Origin: an uncultured Erysipelotrichaceae bacterium
GTDB lineage: Bacteria; Bacillota_I; Bacilli_A; RF39; UBA660
Length of the DNA: 64,000 nucleotides
Reading direction: 5' to 3'
Assembly: GCA_902797995.1 (NCBI GenBank)
Contig: CADBUX010000011.1
Coordinates: 1,013-65,012 of the forward strand
Shown: positions 33,029 through 42,357 of the stretch, piece by piece
Numbering within the stretch: the stretch's first letter is position 1
Layout: the number at the start of each line of letters is the position of its first letter
Program-made: the position numbers and the translations under genes
Notes under the pieces: model-generated
The model's database searches: none
Told to the model about the DNA's origin: nothing
What the model saw: the letters and a program-made list of their open reading frames with translations, nothing else

Positions 33029-33179
33029 ATAATCACCAACAAGTACATTTTAGCACAAAAAAAAGAACTATAAAAGCTCCTTATTTTTCTATGGAGCAAT
33101 AGTTGAGTAATTACACAACTTTTTTCCAAATTGAAATGATATATAAATCATCCATCTAAAAAAATTATATCATATTATT

Positions 33180-33374
33180 TCAATTTTTTAAATAAGCATT
33201 TTTATCATCGTCTGTAAAATAATTATCAAACCATCTATATTCAAATATACATTCTTCATTAATATCATTATCAATGTATTGGGAACCATCATACAAGGCA
33301 TATTGTAATAATTGATATAGTTTTTCTTTATCTTTCATATTCACGCTTACTATTTCATAATTCATATTAATCAC
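33180..33374 (-). CDS. hypothetical 64-aa protein (last gene of cargo operon)
   Basis: Short acidic ORF followed by hairpin plus T-run terminator at about 33085-33110. Confidence 0.3.
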   Translation of the reverse strand: MINMNYEIVSVNMKDKEKLYQLLQYALYDGSQYIDNDINEECIFEYRWFDNYFTDDDKNAYLKN

Positions 33375-33559
33375 CAGCCTATAAATATTATATCATAGAA
33401 AAAGATTAAGTTTTCACTTAATCTCTTAGAAATTAATTTTTGCTTCCTTGCTTGATAGCAGCTTGTACTGCGGAAATAATTGGAATTGCAGTAAATTTTT
33501 ATTTATTGTCTAAAATGATTTATTTAACAATTCTTATTTTATTGAATATTAGCATTGCA

Positions 33560-33874
33560 TTATATTTCTTCATATTCTTTAATTCTTGTGTTTACACCAT
33601 CTATTATTTTATACTCACGATGCTTATTTTTATTTATCTTATTTATTAATTCCTTTTCAAGATCTATGTTTAATATTTCCGATAGTCCAAGCAAATAAAT
33701 CATTGCATCAGCTATTTCTTCACCAACATCATCTTTTTTCTTTCTCCACGCTTCATACGCTTCAGCTACTTCTCCATAAGTTAAACAAAATTCTTTATTT
33801 ATATCTGTCACATTAAAGCCTTTATCTAGTTTATTTTGATATACATCTTTTTGTAATTTTTTTAAATCTATCAT
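33560..33874 (-). CDS. MazG-like nucleoside triphosphate pyrophosphohydrolase (small all-alpha type)
   Basis: EF.LTYGEVAEAYEAWRK and EEIADAMIYLLGLSEILNIDLE match the metal-binding E-x-x-E/D pattern of single-domain MazG/YpjD-like NTP-PPases. Confidence 0.7.
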   Translation of the reverse strand: MIDLKKLQKDVYQNKLDKGFNVTDINKEFCLTYGEVAEAYEAWRKKKDDVGEEIADAMIYLLGLSEILNIDLEKELINKINKNKHREYKIIDGVNTRIKEYEEI

Positions 33875-34461
33875 TATTTTTCCTCCAAAACTTTATTAAT
33901 TATCTTTCTTATTTCAAAAATTCTTTTTTCCATAAATTCAGGATGATCTTTAAACCATTTAATATTAAGTGGTGATGGATGAGGTAATACTATTGCTAGT
34001 TTTCCATTAATATAACTATCTTTAAATATTAAATCATTAAAATTTTCACTAGGAAAAAATACTTTTGCTGATTTTGCTCCAATAATAATATATAGTTCAT
34101 TATTTATATACTCTAATTCCTTTTTAATCCATGTTTCATAGCAAATCTTTGGTGGCATTCTATCATTTCCATTTTTATCTTTTCCAGGGTAGCAATGAGA
34201 AAGAGCAGCAATATAGAAATTATCAGGATTATAAAAAATTGCATCATCAATCATATACCATTCATATTTTAATTTTTTTCCACTTAAATCAGTAAATGGT
34301 TTTAATGTTTGATGGACTGTAGCAGAAGGTGCTTGACTAATTTGAACAATTTTGGAATTTATATTTCCTAGTATTATAGGATGTGGTCGAAAGCCAAATT
34401 TTTCTTTACAAATTTCACATTTTTTTAATTGTGATATTAGTTGATCAAATTCTTTTTGCAT
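33874..34461 (-). CDS. uracil-DNA glycosylase superfamily protein (family unassigned)
   Basis: C-terminal motif LPHPSPLN equals UDG motif B (HPSPL[SN]). An N-terminal Q-A-P-S segment lies in the motif A position. 195 aa. Confidence 0.5.
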   Translation of the reverse strand: MQKEFDQLISQLKKCEICKEKFGFRPHPIILGNINSKIVQISQAPSATVHQTLKPFTDLSGKKLKYEWYMIDDAIFYNPDNFYIAALSHCYPGKDKNGNDRMPPKICYETWIKKELEYINNELYIIIGAKSAKVFFPSENFNDLIFKDSYINGKLAIVLPHPSPLNIKWFKDHPEFMEKRIFEIRKIINKVLEEK

Positions 34462-35032
34462 TATTTTTTCTAAACTCCTCTAATTTTTGTAAAACCTCGT
34501 TAAAGATTTGTTCAATTGGCTTCATACCATCAATGTATATCAAATTATTCTCATTTAAAATGGATGAGTAAGCTTTTCTAACTTTGCCTAAATGTTCCAC
34601 TGATGATTTAATATTGAACTTTGTATCTATATTTCGATTCACAGATTCTTCTGGAGTAATATCAATAAAGAAGCCAATATCTGCCTTTGGAAATACTGAA
34701 TTGATATTTAAAACAAAATCTTTATCTACACCTTCTGCCATTCTATATGCAATAGCGGATGGTACATATCTATCAAATAGTAATATTTTATTATTTAAAT
34801 CATCACTGCTAATACTTTTCATTCTTATATATCTGTCAGCTGCAAATAAATAAGCTTTTAAAATTGAATCTAAAGTGCCTTCAATTGCCATTTTCTTTAG
34901 CTCTATACCAATGTTGGTTTCAAATTCCTTTGATACTTCAGCATCTAGTCCAATATTTATATAATAATCCTTTAACATTTGAACTAACGTTGTTTTACCA
35001 CAATTGTCTAATCCTTCAAAAATAACTATCAA
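34445..35032 (-). CDS. thymidylate kinase-like dNMP kinase (element-borne paralog), TTG start
   Basis: P-loop FEGLDNCGKTT and LFDRY...SAIAYR Tmk motif. The start is TTG (complement of caa at 35030-35032), preceded by RBS AGAGGTGA. Confidence 0.7.
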   Translation of the reverse strand: MIVIFEGLDNCGKTTLVQMLKDYYINIGLDAEVSKEFETNIGIELKKMAIEGTLDSILKAYLFAADRYIRMKSISSDDLNNKILLFDRYVPSAIAYRMAEGVDKDFVLNINSVFPKADIGFFIDITPEESVNRNIDTKFNIKSSVEHLGKVRKAYSSILNENNLIYIDGMKPIEQIFNEVLQKLEEFRKNNAKRI

Positions 35033-35053
35033 ATTATATCACCTCTTATTAGC

Positions 35054-35095
35054 ATTATATCATAAGAAAAGACTAAGAAATTATAATTCGTAGTC
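35054..35095 (-). promoter_or_regulatory. putative extended -10 promoter (TGaTATAAT) for the tmk-like/UDG-like/MazG-like operon
   Basis: Minus-strand TGaTATAAT about 20 nt upstream of the RBS, immediately after an upstream hairpin terminator. Confidence 0.3.
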
Positions 35096-39760: not shown

Positions 39761-39916
39761 AATCCTTTATTCAATACTTTGTAATGAAACTATGTACTAC
39801 ATACTTTCAAAACTTCGTATTGTATGGATGAAAATATTTTATCTTCATAAAACATTTTCTTTTGTAAAAATGCTATCGCCACTTTCATTACTTTGTAACA
39901 AAACGTGCCACGCATT

Positions 39917-41845
39917 TTATTTTTTTAAGAGTTCCATTCTGATAGGTTTACTTGGTATATCTTTTAACTCTCTAGAGTAGTCCACATAAGTATTACTATC
40001 ATCAGGAATGTAATTGAATAATTTGTTTAACTCATCTGCATCTTTAGTAACAACAATATTTTCTTCTTTGATATATATAATTCCAAATCTATATTCTTCC
40101 ATTTTTACATCTGGATCTAATTTATAATAATCTTCTAATGGAAACACTCTAACAATAGCGGAATTATCTTCTACAAAGTTGAAGTAGAATACTTGGTCTT
40201 TAACATAGTAGATTGCTTCAGTATAAGAAACATTATAATAGTTCTTTAACCTCATAATTATTTCTCCAACTTCTTTTTCAGGTAAGTATTCACTAAATCT
40301 TATTTGTCCTATTAGATTACCAAATATACAATCTTGTTTTCTATCTATATAACCATTCTTAAATAATTCATTACATGGGTTAGCGATTGATTCTCTAAAG
40401 TTAACACACTTAACAAAACATTCATTACCAACTAACTCAAGTTCAATATTATCAACATAATTCATAATTAATTCTTCTTTTTCTTCACGAGTTCTTTTCT
40501 TCCATGGTTTCATTTGTCTATCATATTCTTCAGGATGAACTCCTTTATTTATAAATGCAATGTCACGAGCAACTAAAATGTCCTTAGCAGAATAAGTAAA
40601 TGTATCACATTTATCAGCAGTATTAATTTTATCTTGTAGCATTTCTATAGTATCTTCAATTTGTTTTGCTTTTTCTTTATAATCATCTAAACTAAATGCA
40701 CCATCTACATAAGCAAGTTTAGCTCTTTCTAATCTTGCTTTTTGTGTTTCAATTTCTTTAGTAATATTTTCTCTAGGTTCATCAAAGTTTTTGATAATCA
40801 TAGGAACAAAGAATTGATTAACAATAGAATCATATTCAGTTAGTTCATCAACGAAAGTTTTAAAATGTTCTTCAACATCTTTTTCTTTAACTGTTAATTT
40901 GCAATCACGACAATAGTAATAAAAATATTCATGACCTTTTTTCTTGGAAGCTTTACCACCTAAAATTCTTCCACATTTAGGGCATAGTAATTTTTGTAAG
41001 AAGATATAAGTTAAAGTTCTTGAATAAGCACGAGAATTGTTTTTCTTTTGAAATTGACATTCTTCCCACATTTCTTTACTAACTAATGGCTCAACAACAT
41101 TTTCATAGTAAGTAGGATGATTAGTTCTTTTACCATGAACAAAATCTCCTTTATATATTTCGTTTCCAATAATATGAAGTATTGTATTATCTCTCCAATT
41201 ATCTTTTCCTAGAACTTTTTCTTCTTTAAATAGATTAGCAATCTTTTGATAAGATAAACCATTGTGATAAAGTTCAAATATTCTAATAACAACATCTTTT
41301 GTTGATTCATCAATTACTAATTTTTTATCTTCGTGTTTATAACCTAATGGTGCTTTATGTGGAATATGTCCTTGTTTAATTGCACCAGCTAAACCAACTT
41401 TAGTTCTTTCGCTTGTCCTTTCAATTTCATTTTGAGATACACTCATCATAATACGAGATACCATTCTACCATTTGAAGTAGTAGTATTAATATCATCATT
41501 AACTAAATCTAAATAAGCATTATTTTCCTCTAGGAATGTAATAATGTTTTCCCAATCAAAAATACTTCTTGTAATTCTATCTTGTTTTAATGCTAACATT
41601 GTATTTATTTTCTTATTTTTAATATCTTCTTTTAATCTTTCAAATTCAGGCCTGTAATTTCCTTTTTTAGCACTAATTCCCTCATCAGTATAATAATCTC
41701 CAATTTCATAACCTTTGGCTCTACAATAGTCTTCTAATCGTGTTTTTTGTTCTGGTAAACTAAATCCTTCACGAGCTTGATCTTCAGTGCTAACTCGCAA
41801 ATAAAGACCAGCTACTTTTTTAACTTCCTTATCAGATAATTCCAT
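39917..41845 (-). CDS. large serine recombinase (TnpX / phage-integrase-type resolvase)
   Basis: N-terminal resolvase catalytic domain (YLRVSTEDQ...), a recombinase domain, a Zn-ribbon (CPKCG...CRDC), and a long coiled-coil C-terminus. 642 aa. Confidence 0.9.
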
Positions 41846-41863
41846 AAACTCAACTCCTTTTAC

Positions 41864-41916
41864 AAAAAAAGAGGAGTCAAAAGTATCTAGTAAAGTCTAA
41901 ATACTACTGACTCCTC
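41864..41916 (-). terminator. hairpin plus T7 terminator immediately upstream of the recombinase RBS
   Basis: 9-bp perfect inverted repeat gaggagtca...tgactcctc, followed on the minus strand by T7, then AAAGGAG and the recombinase ATG. Confidence 0.5.
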
Positions 41917-42046
41917 AAAATAATTGATATTAAAAATATTTATATTTTTGTTTTTGTGTTTATATTTCATAGATGTACCTCCATTTCTAGAGCATACCTC
42001 TTTCATTGGTTATATATAATATCACTTTTGAAAATAATGTCAATAG

Positions 42047-42319
42047 TTATAGATTTTTAATAAACTCTTGTAAATCACTAATTTTAATATGTTTTTGTAA
42101 ATTTTCTACATAAACATCTCTACCATGATTAAAAGCTAGAAATGTTGTACCTTTGATGATTATTTTATTTGGCTCTATATAATTAATATTTGTTTTCTCA
42201 ACCTTACGAATAGAACCATTGATAAATGTTGGAGTAGTATTACAAAAATCACAAATAAACTGGATTCTTGTTTTAAGTTCCTCATCAATAGGTATTTCCT
42301 TTGTTATAACTTTTAACAT
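42047..42319 (-). CDS. hypothetical 90-aa protein between tRNA-Gly and the recombinase
   Basis: ORF with a Cys pair (CDFC) and no recognizable domain. Confidence 0.35.
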   Translation of the reverse strand: MLKVITKEIPIDEELKTRIQFICDFCNTTPTFINGSIRKVEKTNINYIEPNKIIIKGTTFLAFNHGRDVYVENLQKHIKISDLQEFIKNL

Positions 42320-42357
42320 AATTCACCATCCTTTCTTTGGACGGATGATTTATAAAC

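Follow-up and report, generated by a model that had tools for sequence, protein, structure and literature searches.

Positions 33098-42431 of the window (the whole 64,000-nucleotide stretch of DNA analysed) constitute an integrative and mobilizable element (IME) of 9,334 bp. The bacterium in whose chromosome it resides is an uncultured gut member of the Bacillota, low in GC and spore-forming; the IME itself adds a new member to a known class. As a whole, the region is quite likely explained by an IME integrated at tRNA-Gly with a mosaic cargo, including a thymidylate/uracil hygiene cassette. All of the IME genes are on the minus strand and its GC content is 26%. Ten large ORFs from the rest of the window have housekeeping functions. 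The side-by-side, co-oriented recombinase, relaxase, and eight further genes of the original prediction are all present, and its flanks, a J-domain membrane protein gene and tRNA-Gly, are as described; its bounds of 33030 and 42320, however, are replaced by the true ends, 33098 and 42431. The ends and flanks are as follows.

33098-42431, minus strand: whole IME, including the right-hand core copy, delimited by empty-site alignment and inspection of the junction sequences
33091-33097: left direct repeat ATGGAGC (7 bp), with the crossover core GAGC at 33094-33097
42425-42431: right direct repeat ATGGAGC (7 bp), with the core GAGC at 42428-42431, corresponding to the tRNA-Gly 3' end
32309-33028: J-domain membrane protein gene, flanking the IME on one side
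42426-42500, minus strand: host tRNA-Gly(GCC) (ARAGORN; Rfam tRNA, 63.9 bits), whose last bases are the integration target
33054-33093, minus strand: displaced terminator hairpin of the host tRNA-Gly, which aligns with what immediately follows the tRNA in L001
42360-42385, minus strand: IME-supplied hairpin and T-run just downstream of the tRNA (dG -11.3 kcal/mol, z -2.8)
42396-42424, minus strand: proximal att arm TGAGGAATCTGCTCGGAACGATTACCGAG, the first block that L008 and L081-L084 share with the window

An unoccupied tRNA-Gly site, as the original prediction expected of related genomes, was found in two of them, L001 and L002, whose RmuC is 90% and 88% identical to that of the window, respectively. 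Both loci have the gene order holA-dedA-rmuC-tRNA-Gly, followed by the J-domain gene and sigma-factor genes within 1.7-2.6 kb, and none of the IME's genes is present at either. Homology to the L001 empty site ends at window position 42423 and picks up again at 33097, and the empty-site flanks join the window flanks at the tRNA 3' end, formed by the 7-bp repeat ATGGAGC, giving the exact ends of the IME. The tRNA itself is identical between both empty sites and the window throughout its length.

The IME also occurs as a second, independent insertion in an unrelated host. In L086 and L087, which came from two different samples, it is present at 99.4% identity between flanks of ~50% GC (vs 26% in the IME), with homology extending down to window position 33094. 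In L086, from an unrelated bacterium of ~50% GC, the insertion interrupts a protein-coding gene, and in silico excision of the IME together with one GCTC copy restores a continuous ORF. Because the L086 junctions have only GCTC in common (GAGC on the plus strand), the crossover is narrowed to GAGC. The L086 target, GATTCTCGCCAACGGCTC, is similar to the tRNA target, GATTCTCCTCGTCCGCTC.

The insertion has moved the terminator of the host tRNA-Gly 9.3 kb away from its tRNA. This left hairpin is weak in the fold computation (z -1.9), and the hairpin at 42360-42385 probably replaces it; an equivalent hairpin and T-run after the tRNA is kept in all relatives compared. Upstream of CCA, L008 and L081-L084 diverge completely from the window. 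Hairpins at both flanks were originally proposed to insulate the element from host transcription, but the left one is the host tRNA terminator, and the other, at 41864-41916, is real but internal to the integration module, which comprises the following features.

42047-42319, minus strand: o90 (90 aa), always just upstream of the recombinase gene
41864-41916, minus strand: strong terminator-like hairpin within the IME, separating o90 from the recombinase gene (dG -26.9 kcal/mol, z -6.1, followed by T7)
39917-41845, minus strand: large serine recombinase (642 aa), with Pfam Resolvase, Recombinase, and Zn ribbon domains and a PHROG integrase match (1e-101)

The recombinase domains (Resolvase, 5.7e-33; Recombinase, 5.8e-17; Zn_ribbon_recom, 2.7e-4, the last just under the Pfam cutoff) and the RVS motif are intact, the catalytic motif being YLRVSTEDQ with the serine at position 19. 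The small gene o90 is conserved beside the recombinase gene in L008, L081-84, L105, and L147-L163; it has no match in Pfam, PHROG, or PDB and is a candidate regulator or directionality factor. Such o90-recombinase units adjoin tRNA-Gly(GCC or TCC) in L008, L105, L151, L152, L161, and L163. The ~4.2-kb mini-elements of this family, described with the cargo below, end in ...CATTGCTCCA, and the sequence beyond this differs at every locus.

The transfer module consists of a relaxase gene and a candidate origin of transfer.

38293-39660, minus strand: MobV-type relaxase (455 aa; Pfam Mob_Pre, 50.3 bits vs a cutoff of 25.5)
39701-39760, minus strand: oriT candidate upstream of the relaxase gene, with a palindrome, an inverted repeat, and a G-rich nick-like site

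According to the motif definitions in PMC5090054, the relaxase carries HNYR (HxxR) and HYDETSPHMHIVGVP (HxDExxPHUH). It scores 33.2 against the NCBIfam MobV model, under that model's cutoff of 100, and the closest plasmid genes, which carry the annotation plasmid recombination protein, reach no more than 41% identity to it, in the N-terminal domain only. The oriT candidate folds stably (dG -27.4 kcal/mol, z -4.4) and contains an 18-bp palindrome (39743-39760), the inverted repeat GATATCTTGT-N7-ACAAGATATC (39710-39736), and TAGGGGG/TTATAC, where nicking is predicted to fall between G39703 and T39702. In L081 and L082, the inverted repeat differs in sequence and its pairing is kept by compensatory changes, while the adjacent TAGGGGGTTA is invariant. 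By analogy with the nick sites of pMV158 (GTGTG/TT) and IMESag-rpsI (GTGCG/TT) (PMC5090054), the IME may be nicked at GGGGG/TT. No T4SS or coupling-protein family was matched among the IME proteins in a Pfam and NCBIfam profile search. The original view, in which a mobilizable element encoding a serine recombinase and a MobV relaxase is integrated here, is thus borne out by the empty site, the exact ends, the second host insertion, the GA-containing core, and the oriT candidate.

The kinship to Tn4451/Tn4453 (Clostridium perfringens/Clostridioides difficile; TnpX, TnpZ) that was also claimed is not supported, as only the architecture is common to them. Like these transposons, the IME is small and integrated, encodes a single large serine recombinase and a single MobV (Mob/Pre) relaxase, and lacks mating-pore genes. 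Likewise, its end direct repeats are very short with a core containing GA; in Tn4451, recombination occurs between 2-bp identical sequences and TnpX alone suffices (PMC5704250). However, over 327 aa (catalytic and recombinase domains), its recombinase shares only 24% identity with the DUF4368 recombinase from a Tn4451-like element and has no DUF4368 match itself, and the two relaxases show no significant BLASTP match. Unlike Tn4451, the IME lacks TnpV, TnpW, TnpY, and a resistance gene, although its relative L081 has TnpV after mob, and it prefers tRNA-Gly while Tn4451 has low target specificity.

The relaxase motifs HxxR and HxDExxPHUH are also found in the MOBV1 relaxases of IMESag-rpsI (Streptococcus agalactiae, MobSag) and pMV158 (MobM), in which, as in the IME, the oriT immediately precedes the relaxase gene, contains inverted repeats, and has a G/T nick, predicted in the case of the IME, within a pentamer rich in G (PMC5090054, PMC5863519). 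In contrast to MOBV1 relaxases, the NYD/EL motif II is not recognisable in the IME relaxase; the integration module of the IME is a serine recombinase. Large serine integrases of temperate phages and SCCmec Ccr have the same Resolvase, Recombinase, and Zn ribbon domains, and the best NCBIfam matches of the IME recombinase are CcrB, XisF, and CcrC; all of these scores fall far under the equivalog cutoffs, so it is orthologous to none of them. Unlike those proteins, it is paired with a relaxase and an oriT candidate, and it targets the final bases of tRNA-Gly.

The remaining genes form the cargo, which is a mosaic of four unrelated lineage-specific orphans, a small ORF, and a separate cassette, rather than one module.

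37429-38229, minus strand: u266, predicted to contain a coiled-coil hairpin, a long beta-hairpin, and an alpha/beta domain
36954-37340, minus strand: u128, a small acidic orphan (pI 4.6)
36272-36868, minus strand: u198, a rare orphan
35238-36182, minus strand: u314, mostly alpha-helical, from an uncharacterised family that is large and well conserved
33559-35065, minus strand: 1.5-kb cassette of overlapping reading frames (Tmk, UDG, and MazG-like)
34445-35032, minus strand: Tmk, dTMP kinase (TIGR00041, 101.9 vs a cutoff of 83.25)
33874-34461, minus strand: UDG-superfamily glycosylase of Fe-S type (PF03167, 7e-20)
33560-33874, minus strand: MazG-like NTP pyrophosphatase, by family match
33180-33374, minus strand: o64, a short distal ORF with an acidic product, 98% conserved in L086/L087

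None of u266, u128, u198, and u314 has a Pfam or PHROG match, and structure models of two of the orphans gave no informative fold match. Outside the IME, these four genes turn up one at a time, in surroundings that have nothing in common. Relatives of u128 fall into 31 representative clusters among 1.84 billion proteins, and u198 has nine homologues, which lie within islets of unannotated genes flanked by housekeeping genes.

Within the cassette, Tmk clears the dTMP-kinase equivalog cutoff, and the MazG-like protein keeps the ExxE/ExxD acidic motifs and resembles dCTP pyrophosphatase 1. The host has its own Tmk at 15171-15833, so the extra kinase is not simply filling a gap. The UDG matches best 3IKB, an uncharacterised UDG-fold protein (3e-13), and the Thermus family-4 UDG 1UI0 (5.5e-6) in PDB, and shares with 3IKB and the family 4/5 Fe-S UDGs the PF03167 domain, the motif B HPSPLN, and the Fe-S UDG spacing of four Cys, while its scores are far under the NCBIfam family-4 cutoffs. 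Its motif A, SQAPS, departs from the GEAPG of family 4 (1UI0 alignment) and the GQAPG of 3IKB, and its substrate could therefore be other than uracil. The cassette is also found elsewhere, with ~80% nucleotide identity across exactly 33559-35065 in L123, L124, L127, L151, L152, L154, and L168, and the trio is present in 23 of the 57 informative metagenome loci. It recurs, without the orphans, on many ~4.2-kb mini-elements with a serine recombinase targeting tRNA-Gly, and parts of it occur in chromosomal contexts, where close UDG relatives (70-93% identity), without Tmk or MazG, adjoin housekeeping genes. With the trio so widely distributed and UDG relatives among housekeeping genes, the outcome that the original prediction itself named as counting against it, a cargo of ordinary genes, applies in part, namely to the trio. 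The trio would most likely serve as a thymidylate/uracil "DNA hygiene" cassette. Genes of uracil metabolism are on record from mobile elements, SCCmec also bearing one, the UNG inhibitor SaUGI, and a MazG-like dNTPase and an archaeal-type UDG were proposed to make up for missing dut and ung (PMC5122711).

The eight cargo genes were originally suggested to form an undescribed anti-phage defence or DNA-modification module. All eight are co-oriented, five have no annotation at all, nucleotide-directed enzymes are known in some defence systems, and Tmk gives weak PADLOC matches (PDC-M51B, 3.8e-7; VakA, 2.4e-5). We nevertheless regard a single module as very unlikely, because beyond these weak generic kinase matches the PADLOC models match no cargo protein, and methyltransferase, nuclease, or sensor-type ATPase domains were not detected. 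The genes do not travel together either, as relatives of u314, u266, and u198 are found singly in unrelated contexts and the trio is separate. A narrower defence or counter-defence role for the cassette alone is only slightly less doubtful. It might act through a Ugi-insensitive glycosylase, a dUTP/modified-dNTP hydrolase, and an extra dTMP kinase against phages with uracil or hydroxymethyluracil DNA, or counter defences that manipulate dNTP pools. All three activities concern the dUTP/dTTP balance and uracil in DNA, the frames overlap, and Tmk and MazG have PHROG relatives; moreover, the cassette is carried repeatedly by different recombinase backbones, 40-61% identical to each other's counterparts, which suggests selection for it on mobile elements. 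However, PADLOC gives no match to named defence systems, IMG/VR holds no UDG relative, and the UDG relatives among housekeeping genes point to a housekeeping origin.

Another reading takes the region as phage-derived, either a prophage remnant or a phage satellite, with o90-recombinase as the phage integration module and the nucleotide enzymes as auxiliary genes. In four IMG/VR contigs, o90-recombinase (64-79% identical) directly follows phage tape-measure, tail, and lysis (endolysin) genes, and PHROG matches were obtained not only for the integrase, Tmk, and MazG but also for the relaxase (phrog_31146). The integration module on its own may thus have a phage connection. This origin is highly improbable, as Pfam and PHROG detected no capsid, terminase, portal, repressor, or replication gene in the 9.3 kb, whereas a MobV relaxase and an oriT candidate are present, and two hosts carry the same 9.3-kb unit with identical ends. 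IMG/VR contains no relative of UDG or u314. In the viral contigs, ~18 nt resembling a tRNA 3' end precede the o90 junction, and L081 goes on with mob and TnpV, which fits an IME in tandem behind a prophage at a tRNA site.

For the mosaic IME, we propose that the serine recombinase, accompanied by o90, would have inserted the element into the last bases of tRNA-Gly(GCC) by recombination inside the 4-bp core GCTC (GAGC on the plus strand), leaving the tRNA intact and supplying the new terminator behind it. The IME is predicted to excise as a circle with the joint GTGTAATTACTCAACTATTGCTCCATTGAGGAATCTGCTCGG, and the MobV relaxase might then nick oriT at GGGGG/TT, beside the conserved hairpin just upstream of its own gene, so that the element would probably be mobilised via the mating machinery of other bacteria. 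The cassette, in turn, may hydrolyse dUTP or another non-canonical dNTP, excise uracil or a related base, and push dTMP towards dTTP. If this hygiene reading is true, the cassette would benefit the host or the incoming element.

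The GC content of the window is about 26%, and all genes around the element lie on the minus strand, where they are arranged as follows.

Genes of the element and its flanks, in transcription order (window positions)
42563-43621, minus strand: RmuC gene, first in transcription order
42426-42500, minus strand: tRNA-Gly(GCC), after the RmuC gene
42047-42319, minus strand: o90, a 90-aa ORF, after tRNA-Gly(GCC)
39917-41845, minus strand: predicted large serine recombinase, 642 aa, after o90
38293-39660, minus strand: predicted Mob/Pre relaxase, 455 aa, after the recombinase gene
After the relaxase gene, minus strand: u266, u128, u198 and u314, in this order (orphan ORFs named by aa length), without Pfam, PHROG, NCBIfam or PADLOC match
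After u314, minus strand: dTMP kinase (Tmk), UDG-superfamily and MazG-like protein genes, with overlapping reading frames
After the MazG-like gene, minus strand: o64, a 64-aa ORF
32309-33028, minus strand: J-domain membrane protein gene, last, beyond o64

Relatives of this locus were sought by an RmuC scan of species-representative genomes, in which the two nearest were L001 (RmuC 90% identical) and L002 (88%). In both, holA-dedA-rmuC-tRNA-Gly is followed, 1.7-2.6 kb on, by the J-domain gene and two sigma-factor genes, and none of the genes of the element is present at either locus. DNA homology to L001 runs from window position 44299 to 42423, across the tRNA, and picks up again at 33097; the empty site of L001, as aligned with the window, reads ...CGTCCGCTCCA up to the junction and TTGTAATTTAAGAACTTTTATAGTTC from there on. 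The tRNA side of the window agrees with L001 up to GCTCCAT and its left flank agrees from GCTCCAT on; thus, the insertion is bounded by a 7-bp direct repeat, ATGGAGC, with copies at 33091-33097 and 42425-42431. In L001 (11263-14103) and L002 (12210-15045), a 470-aa gene, PepD-like as read from its sequence, occupies the interval between tRNA-Gly and the J-domain gene and is absent from window 32104-33028.

A second insertion was found by an exact-protein look-up with u314, which returned the contig of the window itself (L085, ERZ27280555) and two contigs from two other samples, L086 (ERZ920174) and L087. The element copies in L086 and L087 are 99.4% identical to that of the window and lie in a wholly different setting, with ribosomal protein genes nearby and flanks of ~50% GC versus 26% in the element. 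Near-identical copies in hosts of 27% and ~50% GC are indirect evidence of transfer. Ribosomal protein L5, used to place the GC-rich host of L086 and L087, scored alike against all PDB ribosomes. The L086 junctions read ...GATTCTCGCCAACGGCTC followed by CATTGAGGAATCTG... and ...CTCAACTATTGCTC followed by TTGGCCGATTTG..., and in-silico removal of the element together with one GCTC copy regained an uninterrupted ORF. Assembly chimerism of L086 and L087 was ruled out, because the right junction is common to two independent assemblies and removal restores the ORF. An insertion of this kind argues for a mobile element that made a recent move from one host to a very different one. The L086 copy also carries an additional ORF of 104 aa (238-552), which separates the att arm from o90, and its relaxase gene is broken into pieces of 149 and 298 aa (3126-4465), while that of L087 is intact.

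Comparison of the L086 and window junctions places the crossover within GCTC (GAGC on the plus strand), and the junctions and the empty site therefore delimit the element as 33098-42431, 9,334 bp. The original prediction of a serine recombinase and MobV relaxase element with cargo is hereby confirmed, with its ends corrected to 33098 and 42431 by the empty site in L001 and L002 for which a flank comparison had been proposed. The GA crossover that it had named is contained in the GAGC core common to the four junctions, and GC and AG fit the junction data equally well. The attP as reconstructed is GTTGTGTAATTACTCAACTATT-GCTC-CATTGAGGAATCTGCTCGGAACGATTACCGAG; the circle joint is predicted to read ...GTGTAATTACTCAACTATT-GCTC-CATTGAGGAATCTGCTCGG..., and the restored attB GATTCTCCTCGTCC-GCTC-CATAGAAAAATAAGG. 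The tRNA target and the L086 target have GATTCTC-N7-GCTC in common, which is a plausible attB half-site. In Tn4451, a promoter is created across the circular joint; inspection of the reconstructed attP by eye showed no convincing -35/-10 pair across it.

No support was found for the role of flank insulators that had been given to two hairpins. The strong hairpin at 41864-41916 (dG -26.9 kcal/mol, z -6.1) is internal, lying between o90 and the recombinase gene, and the left one is host DNA, namely the terminator of tRNA-Gly, moved 9.3 kb away by the insertion. Directly behind the tRNA, the element supplies a hairpin and T-run of its own (42360-42385), which has an equivalent in all relatives. 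The tRNA was the single match in an Rfam scan of the region.

The recombinase matches the Pfam families Resolvase (114.5 bits) and Recombinase (62.3 bits), both above cutoff, and its zinc ribbon scores slightly under cutoff (21.7 vs 25.3). The catalytic motif YLRVS19TEDQ is kept, with the serine at position 19. Taken together, the Resolvase, Recombinase and zinc-ribbon regions and the active-site serine indicate a large serine recombinase. For the relaxase, HNYR and HYDETSPHMHIVGVP were read as MOBV motifs I (HxxR) and III (HxDExxPHUH), as defined previously (PMC5090054), and no motif II (NYD/EL) was recognised in the sequence. The protein scores 50.3 against Pfam Mob_Pre (cutoff 25.5) and falls below the stricter NCBIfam MobV model (33.2 vs cutoff 100). 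Motifs I and III and the Mob_Pre score place it in MOBV.

The 256-bp intergenic gap between the recombinase and relaxase genes contains an 18-bp palindrome and a 10-bp inverted repeat, GATATCTTGT-N7-ACAAGATATC, followed immediately by TAGGGGGTTATAC, and this segment folds far better than shuffled controls (z -4.4). In the IMG/VR contigs L081 and L082, which encode relaxases sharing 42-44% identity with that of the element, the inverted repeats differ in sequence yet still pair (GAGTTTTGA/TCAAAACTC and GAGTTTAGA/TCTAAACTC), and the TAGGGGGTTA behind them is unchanged. According to previous studies, the nick sites GTGTG/TT of pMV158 and GTGCG/TT of IMESag-rpsI are located directly upstream of the relaxase gene (PMC5090054; PMC5863519). 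From the covariation of the hairpin and the resemblance to these two sites, an oriT is predicted, in which the minus strand would be nicked at GGGGG/TT, between G39703 and T39702.

No T4SS, VirD4 or TcpA family match was obtained with Pfam and NCBIfam among ten element proteins (o64 not among them), and the ten large ORFs scanned elsewhere in the window were all housekeeping. With no mating-pore or coupling-protein gene in the element, its transfer would have to depend on the mating machinery of a helper element. As well, none of the ten scanned proteins matched a virion, packaging or phage replication or regulation family in Pfam or PHROG. The element thus combines its own integrase, att ends and an empty site with a relaxase, a predicted oriT and no mating-pore genes, as canonical IMEs do. 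As far as can be judged from sequence, the reading of the locus as an integrated mobilizable element is strongly supported by the empty site, the 7-bp repeat, the second insertion, the intact motifs and the oriT-like hairpin.

The supposed kinship with Tn4451/Tn4453 did not hold. A Tn4451-like element of a Salmonella plasmid (CP123681), carrying TnpV, a resistance gene, Mob, TnpW and a DUF4368 recombinase, was used as comparator. Its recombinase is 24% identical over 327 aa to that of the element, which has no DUF4368 match; its Mob gives no significant BLASTP match to the relaxase (E 0.43); and its TnpW is unrelated to o90 (E 0.09). TnpV, a feature of Tn4451, has no Pfam match in the window and is present in only one relative, L081. 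Neither a TnpX-type recombinase with DUF4368 nor a TnpZ-type relaxase with tnpV, tnpW and tnpY was thus found. Among sequenced plasmids, the nearest genes are at most 32% (recombinase) and 41% (relaxase) identical, and a whole-region megablast against phage and plasmid collections gave no match. Given these distances, the element appears Tn4451-like in its working and is not of the Tn4451 lineage, belonging to canonical IMEs with a serine integrase and MobV relaxase, which are a recognised class (PMC5704250).

The pair of o90 and recombinase genes recurs after tRNA-Gly(GCC) or tRNA-Gly(TCC) in other loci (L008, L105, L151, L152, L161, and L163). Several loci (L147, L150, L151, L154, L158, L161, and L163; for instance L151 4834-9033) hold minimal elements of ~4.2 kb, consisting of o90, a recombinase gene (product 40-61% identical to that of the window element), the Tmk-UDG-MazG genes and nothing else. 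Their proximal end is GCTCCA followed by GAAGCAAAAATCG..., with the 3' end of tRNA-Gly(TCC) or other DNA before it, and their distal end is ...TTTTTCGCAAATGACCCATGTCATTGCTCCA, beyond which the sequence differs in five of five loci. They are bounded by GCTCCA cores at tRNA-Gly(TCC) 3' ends, and tandem arrays are common (L151, L154, and L158). Compared with them, the window element has an extra block of oriT, mob and four orphans between the recombinase gene and the three-gene set.

In four IMG/VR contigs (L081-L084, at ~9250-9525), the o90-recombinase pair (64-79% identical) stands directly after siphovirus tape-measure, tail and endolysin genes, and the pair could serve some phages as their own integration module. 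The ~18 nt immediately before the junction resemble a tRNA 3' end, and L081 carries mob and a TnpV gene further on. We read these contigs as probable cases of a tRNA site at which a prophage is followed in tandem by an IME.

The Tmk, UDG and MazG-like genes form a discrete 1.5-kb unit (window 35065-33559), and many loci match precisely this interval at ~80% nucleotide identity. The unit is whole in 23 of the 57 informative metagenome loci, while UDG relatives stand alone in 30, some of these solitary copies retaining ~125 bp of the tmk 3' end. Four solitary contexts were scanned, three of which have ordinary neighbours (a class I, Tyr/Trp-type tRNA synthetase; VanZ and a metallo-beta-lactamase-fold protein; a phosphotransferase); in the fourth, udg and mazG with tmk deleted lie downstream of pyruvate phosphate dikinase. 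The non-coding DNA after mazG (33383-33550) has counterparts of 71-75% identity in the intergenic DNA that precedes solitary udg copies in L119, L121 and L183.

The Tmk passes the dTMP-kinase equivalog TIGR00041 (101.9 bits vs cutoff 83.25), and a P-loop (GLDNCGKTT) and a DRY motif (FDRY) can be read in its sequence. In L001 and L002, the J-domain gene is followed immediately by a tmk, which the window lacks at that place; a 58%-identical host copy lies instead at 15171-15833. The host Tmk differs from that of the element, and its presence rules out that the element Tmk replaces a lost one. In the MazG-like protein, the acidic motifs are kept, and the structures nearest to it are those of an archaeal pyrophosphatase and dCTP pyrophosphatase 1. 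The glycosylase has four cysteines with Fe-S UDG spacing, an HPSPLN motif and an unusual motif A, and is structurally nearest to the uncharacterised 3IKB and the Thermus family-4 UDG.

According to previous work, uracil-metabolism genes travel on mobile elements, and a MazG-like dNTPase and an archaeal-type UDG may substitute for dut and ung (PMC5122711). Judging from the family assignments, the best reading of the three genes is a putative thymidylate/uracil hygiene cassette, common to diverged tRNA-Gly-targeting serine-recombinase elements of uncultured gut Bacillota. It seems improbable that they are instead a mobile device of immunity or counter-immunity that acts on the base composition of DNA, in which case the orphans could include new anti-defence proteins. 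As immunity, such a device would replenish the dTTP pool and destroy phage DNA containing uracil or modified bases; as counter-immunity, it would shield the DNA of an incoming element from host defences acting through dNTP pools. A search of ten proteins, the four orphans among them, against PADLOC-DB v2 matched no defence system, giving only weak P-loop-type (Tmk) and coiled-coil (Mob) matches.

The eight cargo genes had been proposed to act as one defence or DNA-modification module, a reading that neither the PADLOC result nor the distribution of the orphans supports. The u314 family is large and well conserved (529 matches, the best 120 of which are all at least 59% identical), and the contexts of its members share nothing, ranging from orphan-gene islets by ribosomal or other housekeeping genes to other settings. 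One of these is a ~4.5-kb element within an ABC-transporter operon (L099-L101, e.g. L099 9001-13475), comprising a u314 relative (67%), two small ORFs, a REP_ORF2-G2P rolling-circle Rep-like protein and a DUF4368-type serine recombinase. For u266, 25 relatives were found, one directly after an o90-recombinase pair (L105), and for u198 nine; u128 is represented by 31 clusters (cluster representatives) in a set of 1.84 billion proteins. No second gene of the cargo set accompanies any of the orphan relatives examined, which makes the "eight-gene cargo" a mosaic rather than a module.

Neither PDB nor viral structures gave an informative match to the confident u314 model (pLDDT 89), and the u266 model (pLDDT 85) matches helical hairpins only. 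Profile searches with u314, u266 and o90 against PDB sequences gave no match, and IMG/VR scans found no relatives of u314 or UDG. In L085-L087 (L085 9893-9924), a 32-bp copy of the o64 3' end is also present between u198 and u314, lengthening u198 to a 204-aa form; the window has a single copy, at 33175-33206. L117 (1-4113) holds mob, u266, a u198/u314-boundary fragment, the 3' part of tmk with udg and mazG, and then u128, which could be a real deletion or rearrangement or a metagenome misassembly.

Outside the element, the window is ordinary chromosome, with genes for PBP, PcrA/UvrD, ComEC, PriA, MurD, SpoIVA and GerA, and the host is therefore a walled, spore-forming member of the Bacillota. 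SpoIVA and a GerA/GerAC/spore-permease operon are located at 3092-4567 and 23709-27336, although the database labels of relatives read Tenericutes or Mycoplasma; the nearest ones are MAGs with the label uncultured Tenericutes or Bacilli. Two neighbouring sigma-70 paralogues (29429-32104; 517 and 369 aa, 38% identical to each other) are found downstream of the J-domain gene, an arrangement kept in L001 and L002.

Present understanding of IMEs is not overturned by this element, whose kind is known; what is of side interest is the family of mini-elements targeting tRNA-Gly, with a three-gene cassette that recurs in it. The element is an apparently active IME with exact boundaries, from an uncultured gut lineage about which little is known, and its attB, attP core and predicted oriT are now defined; sequence evidence points to its recent movement between very different hosts. 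Moreover, it has exposed a family of ~4.2-kb serine-recombinase elements that target the last bases of tRNA-Gly, stack in tandem and carry the same cassette. Should the recombinase and att sites function in the predicted way, organisms that have no genetic tool at present could gain one. If the cassette changes uracil content or dNTP balance, mobile elements would be spreading DNA-hygiene functions in AT-rich, reduced genomes.
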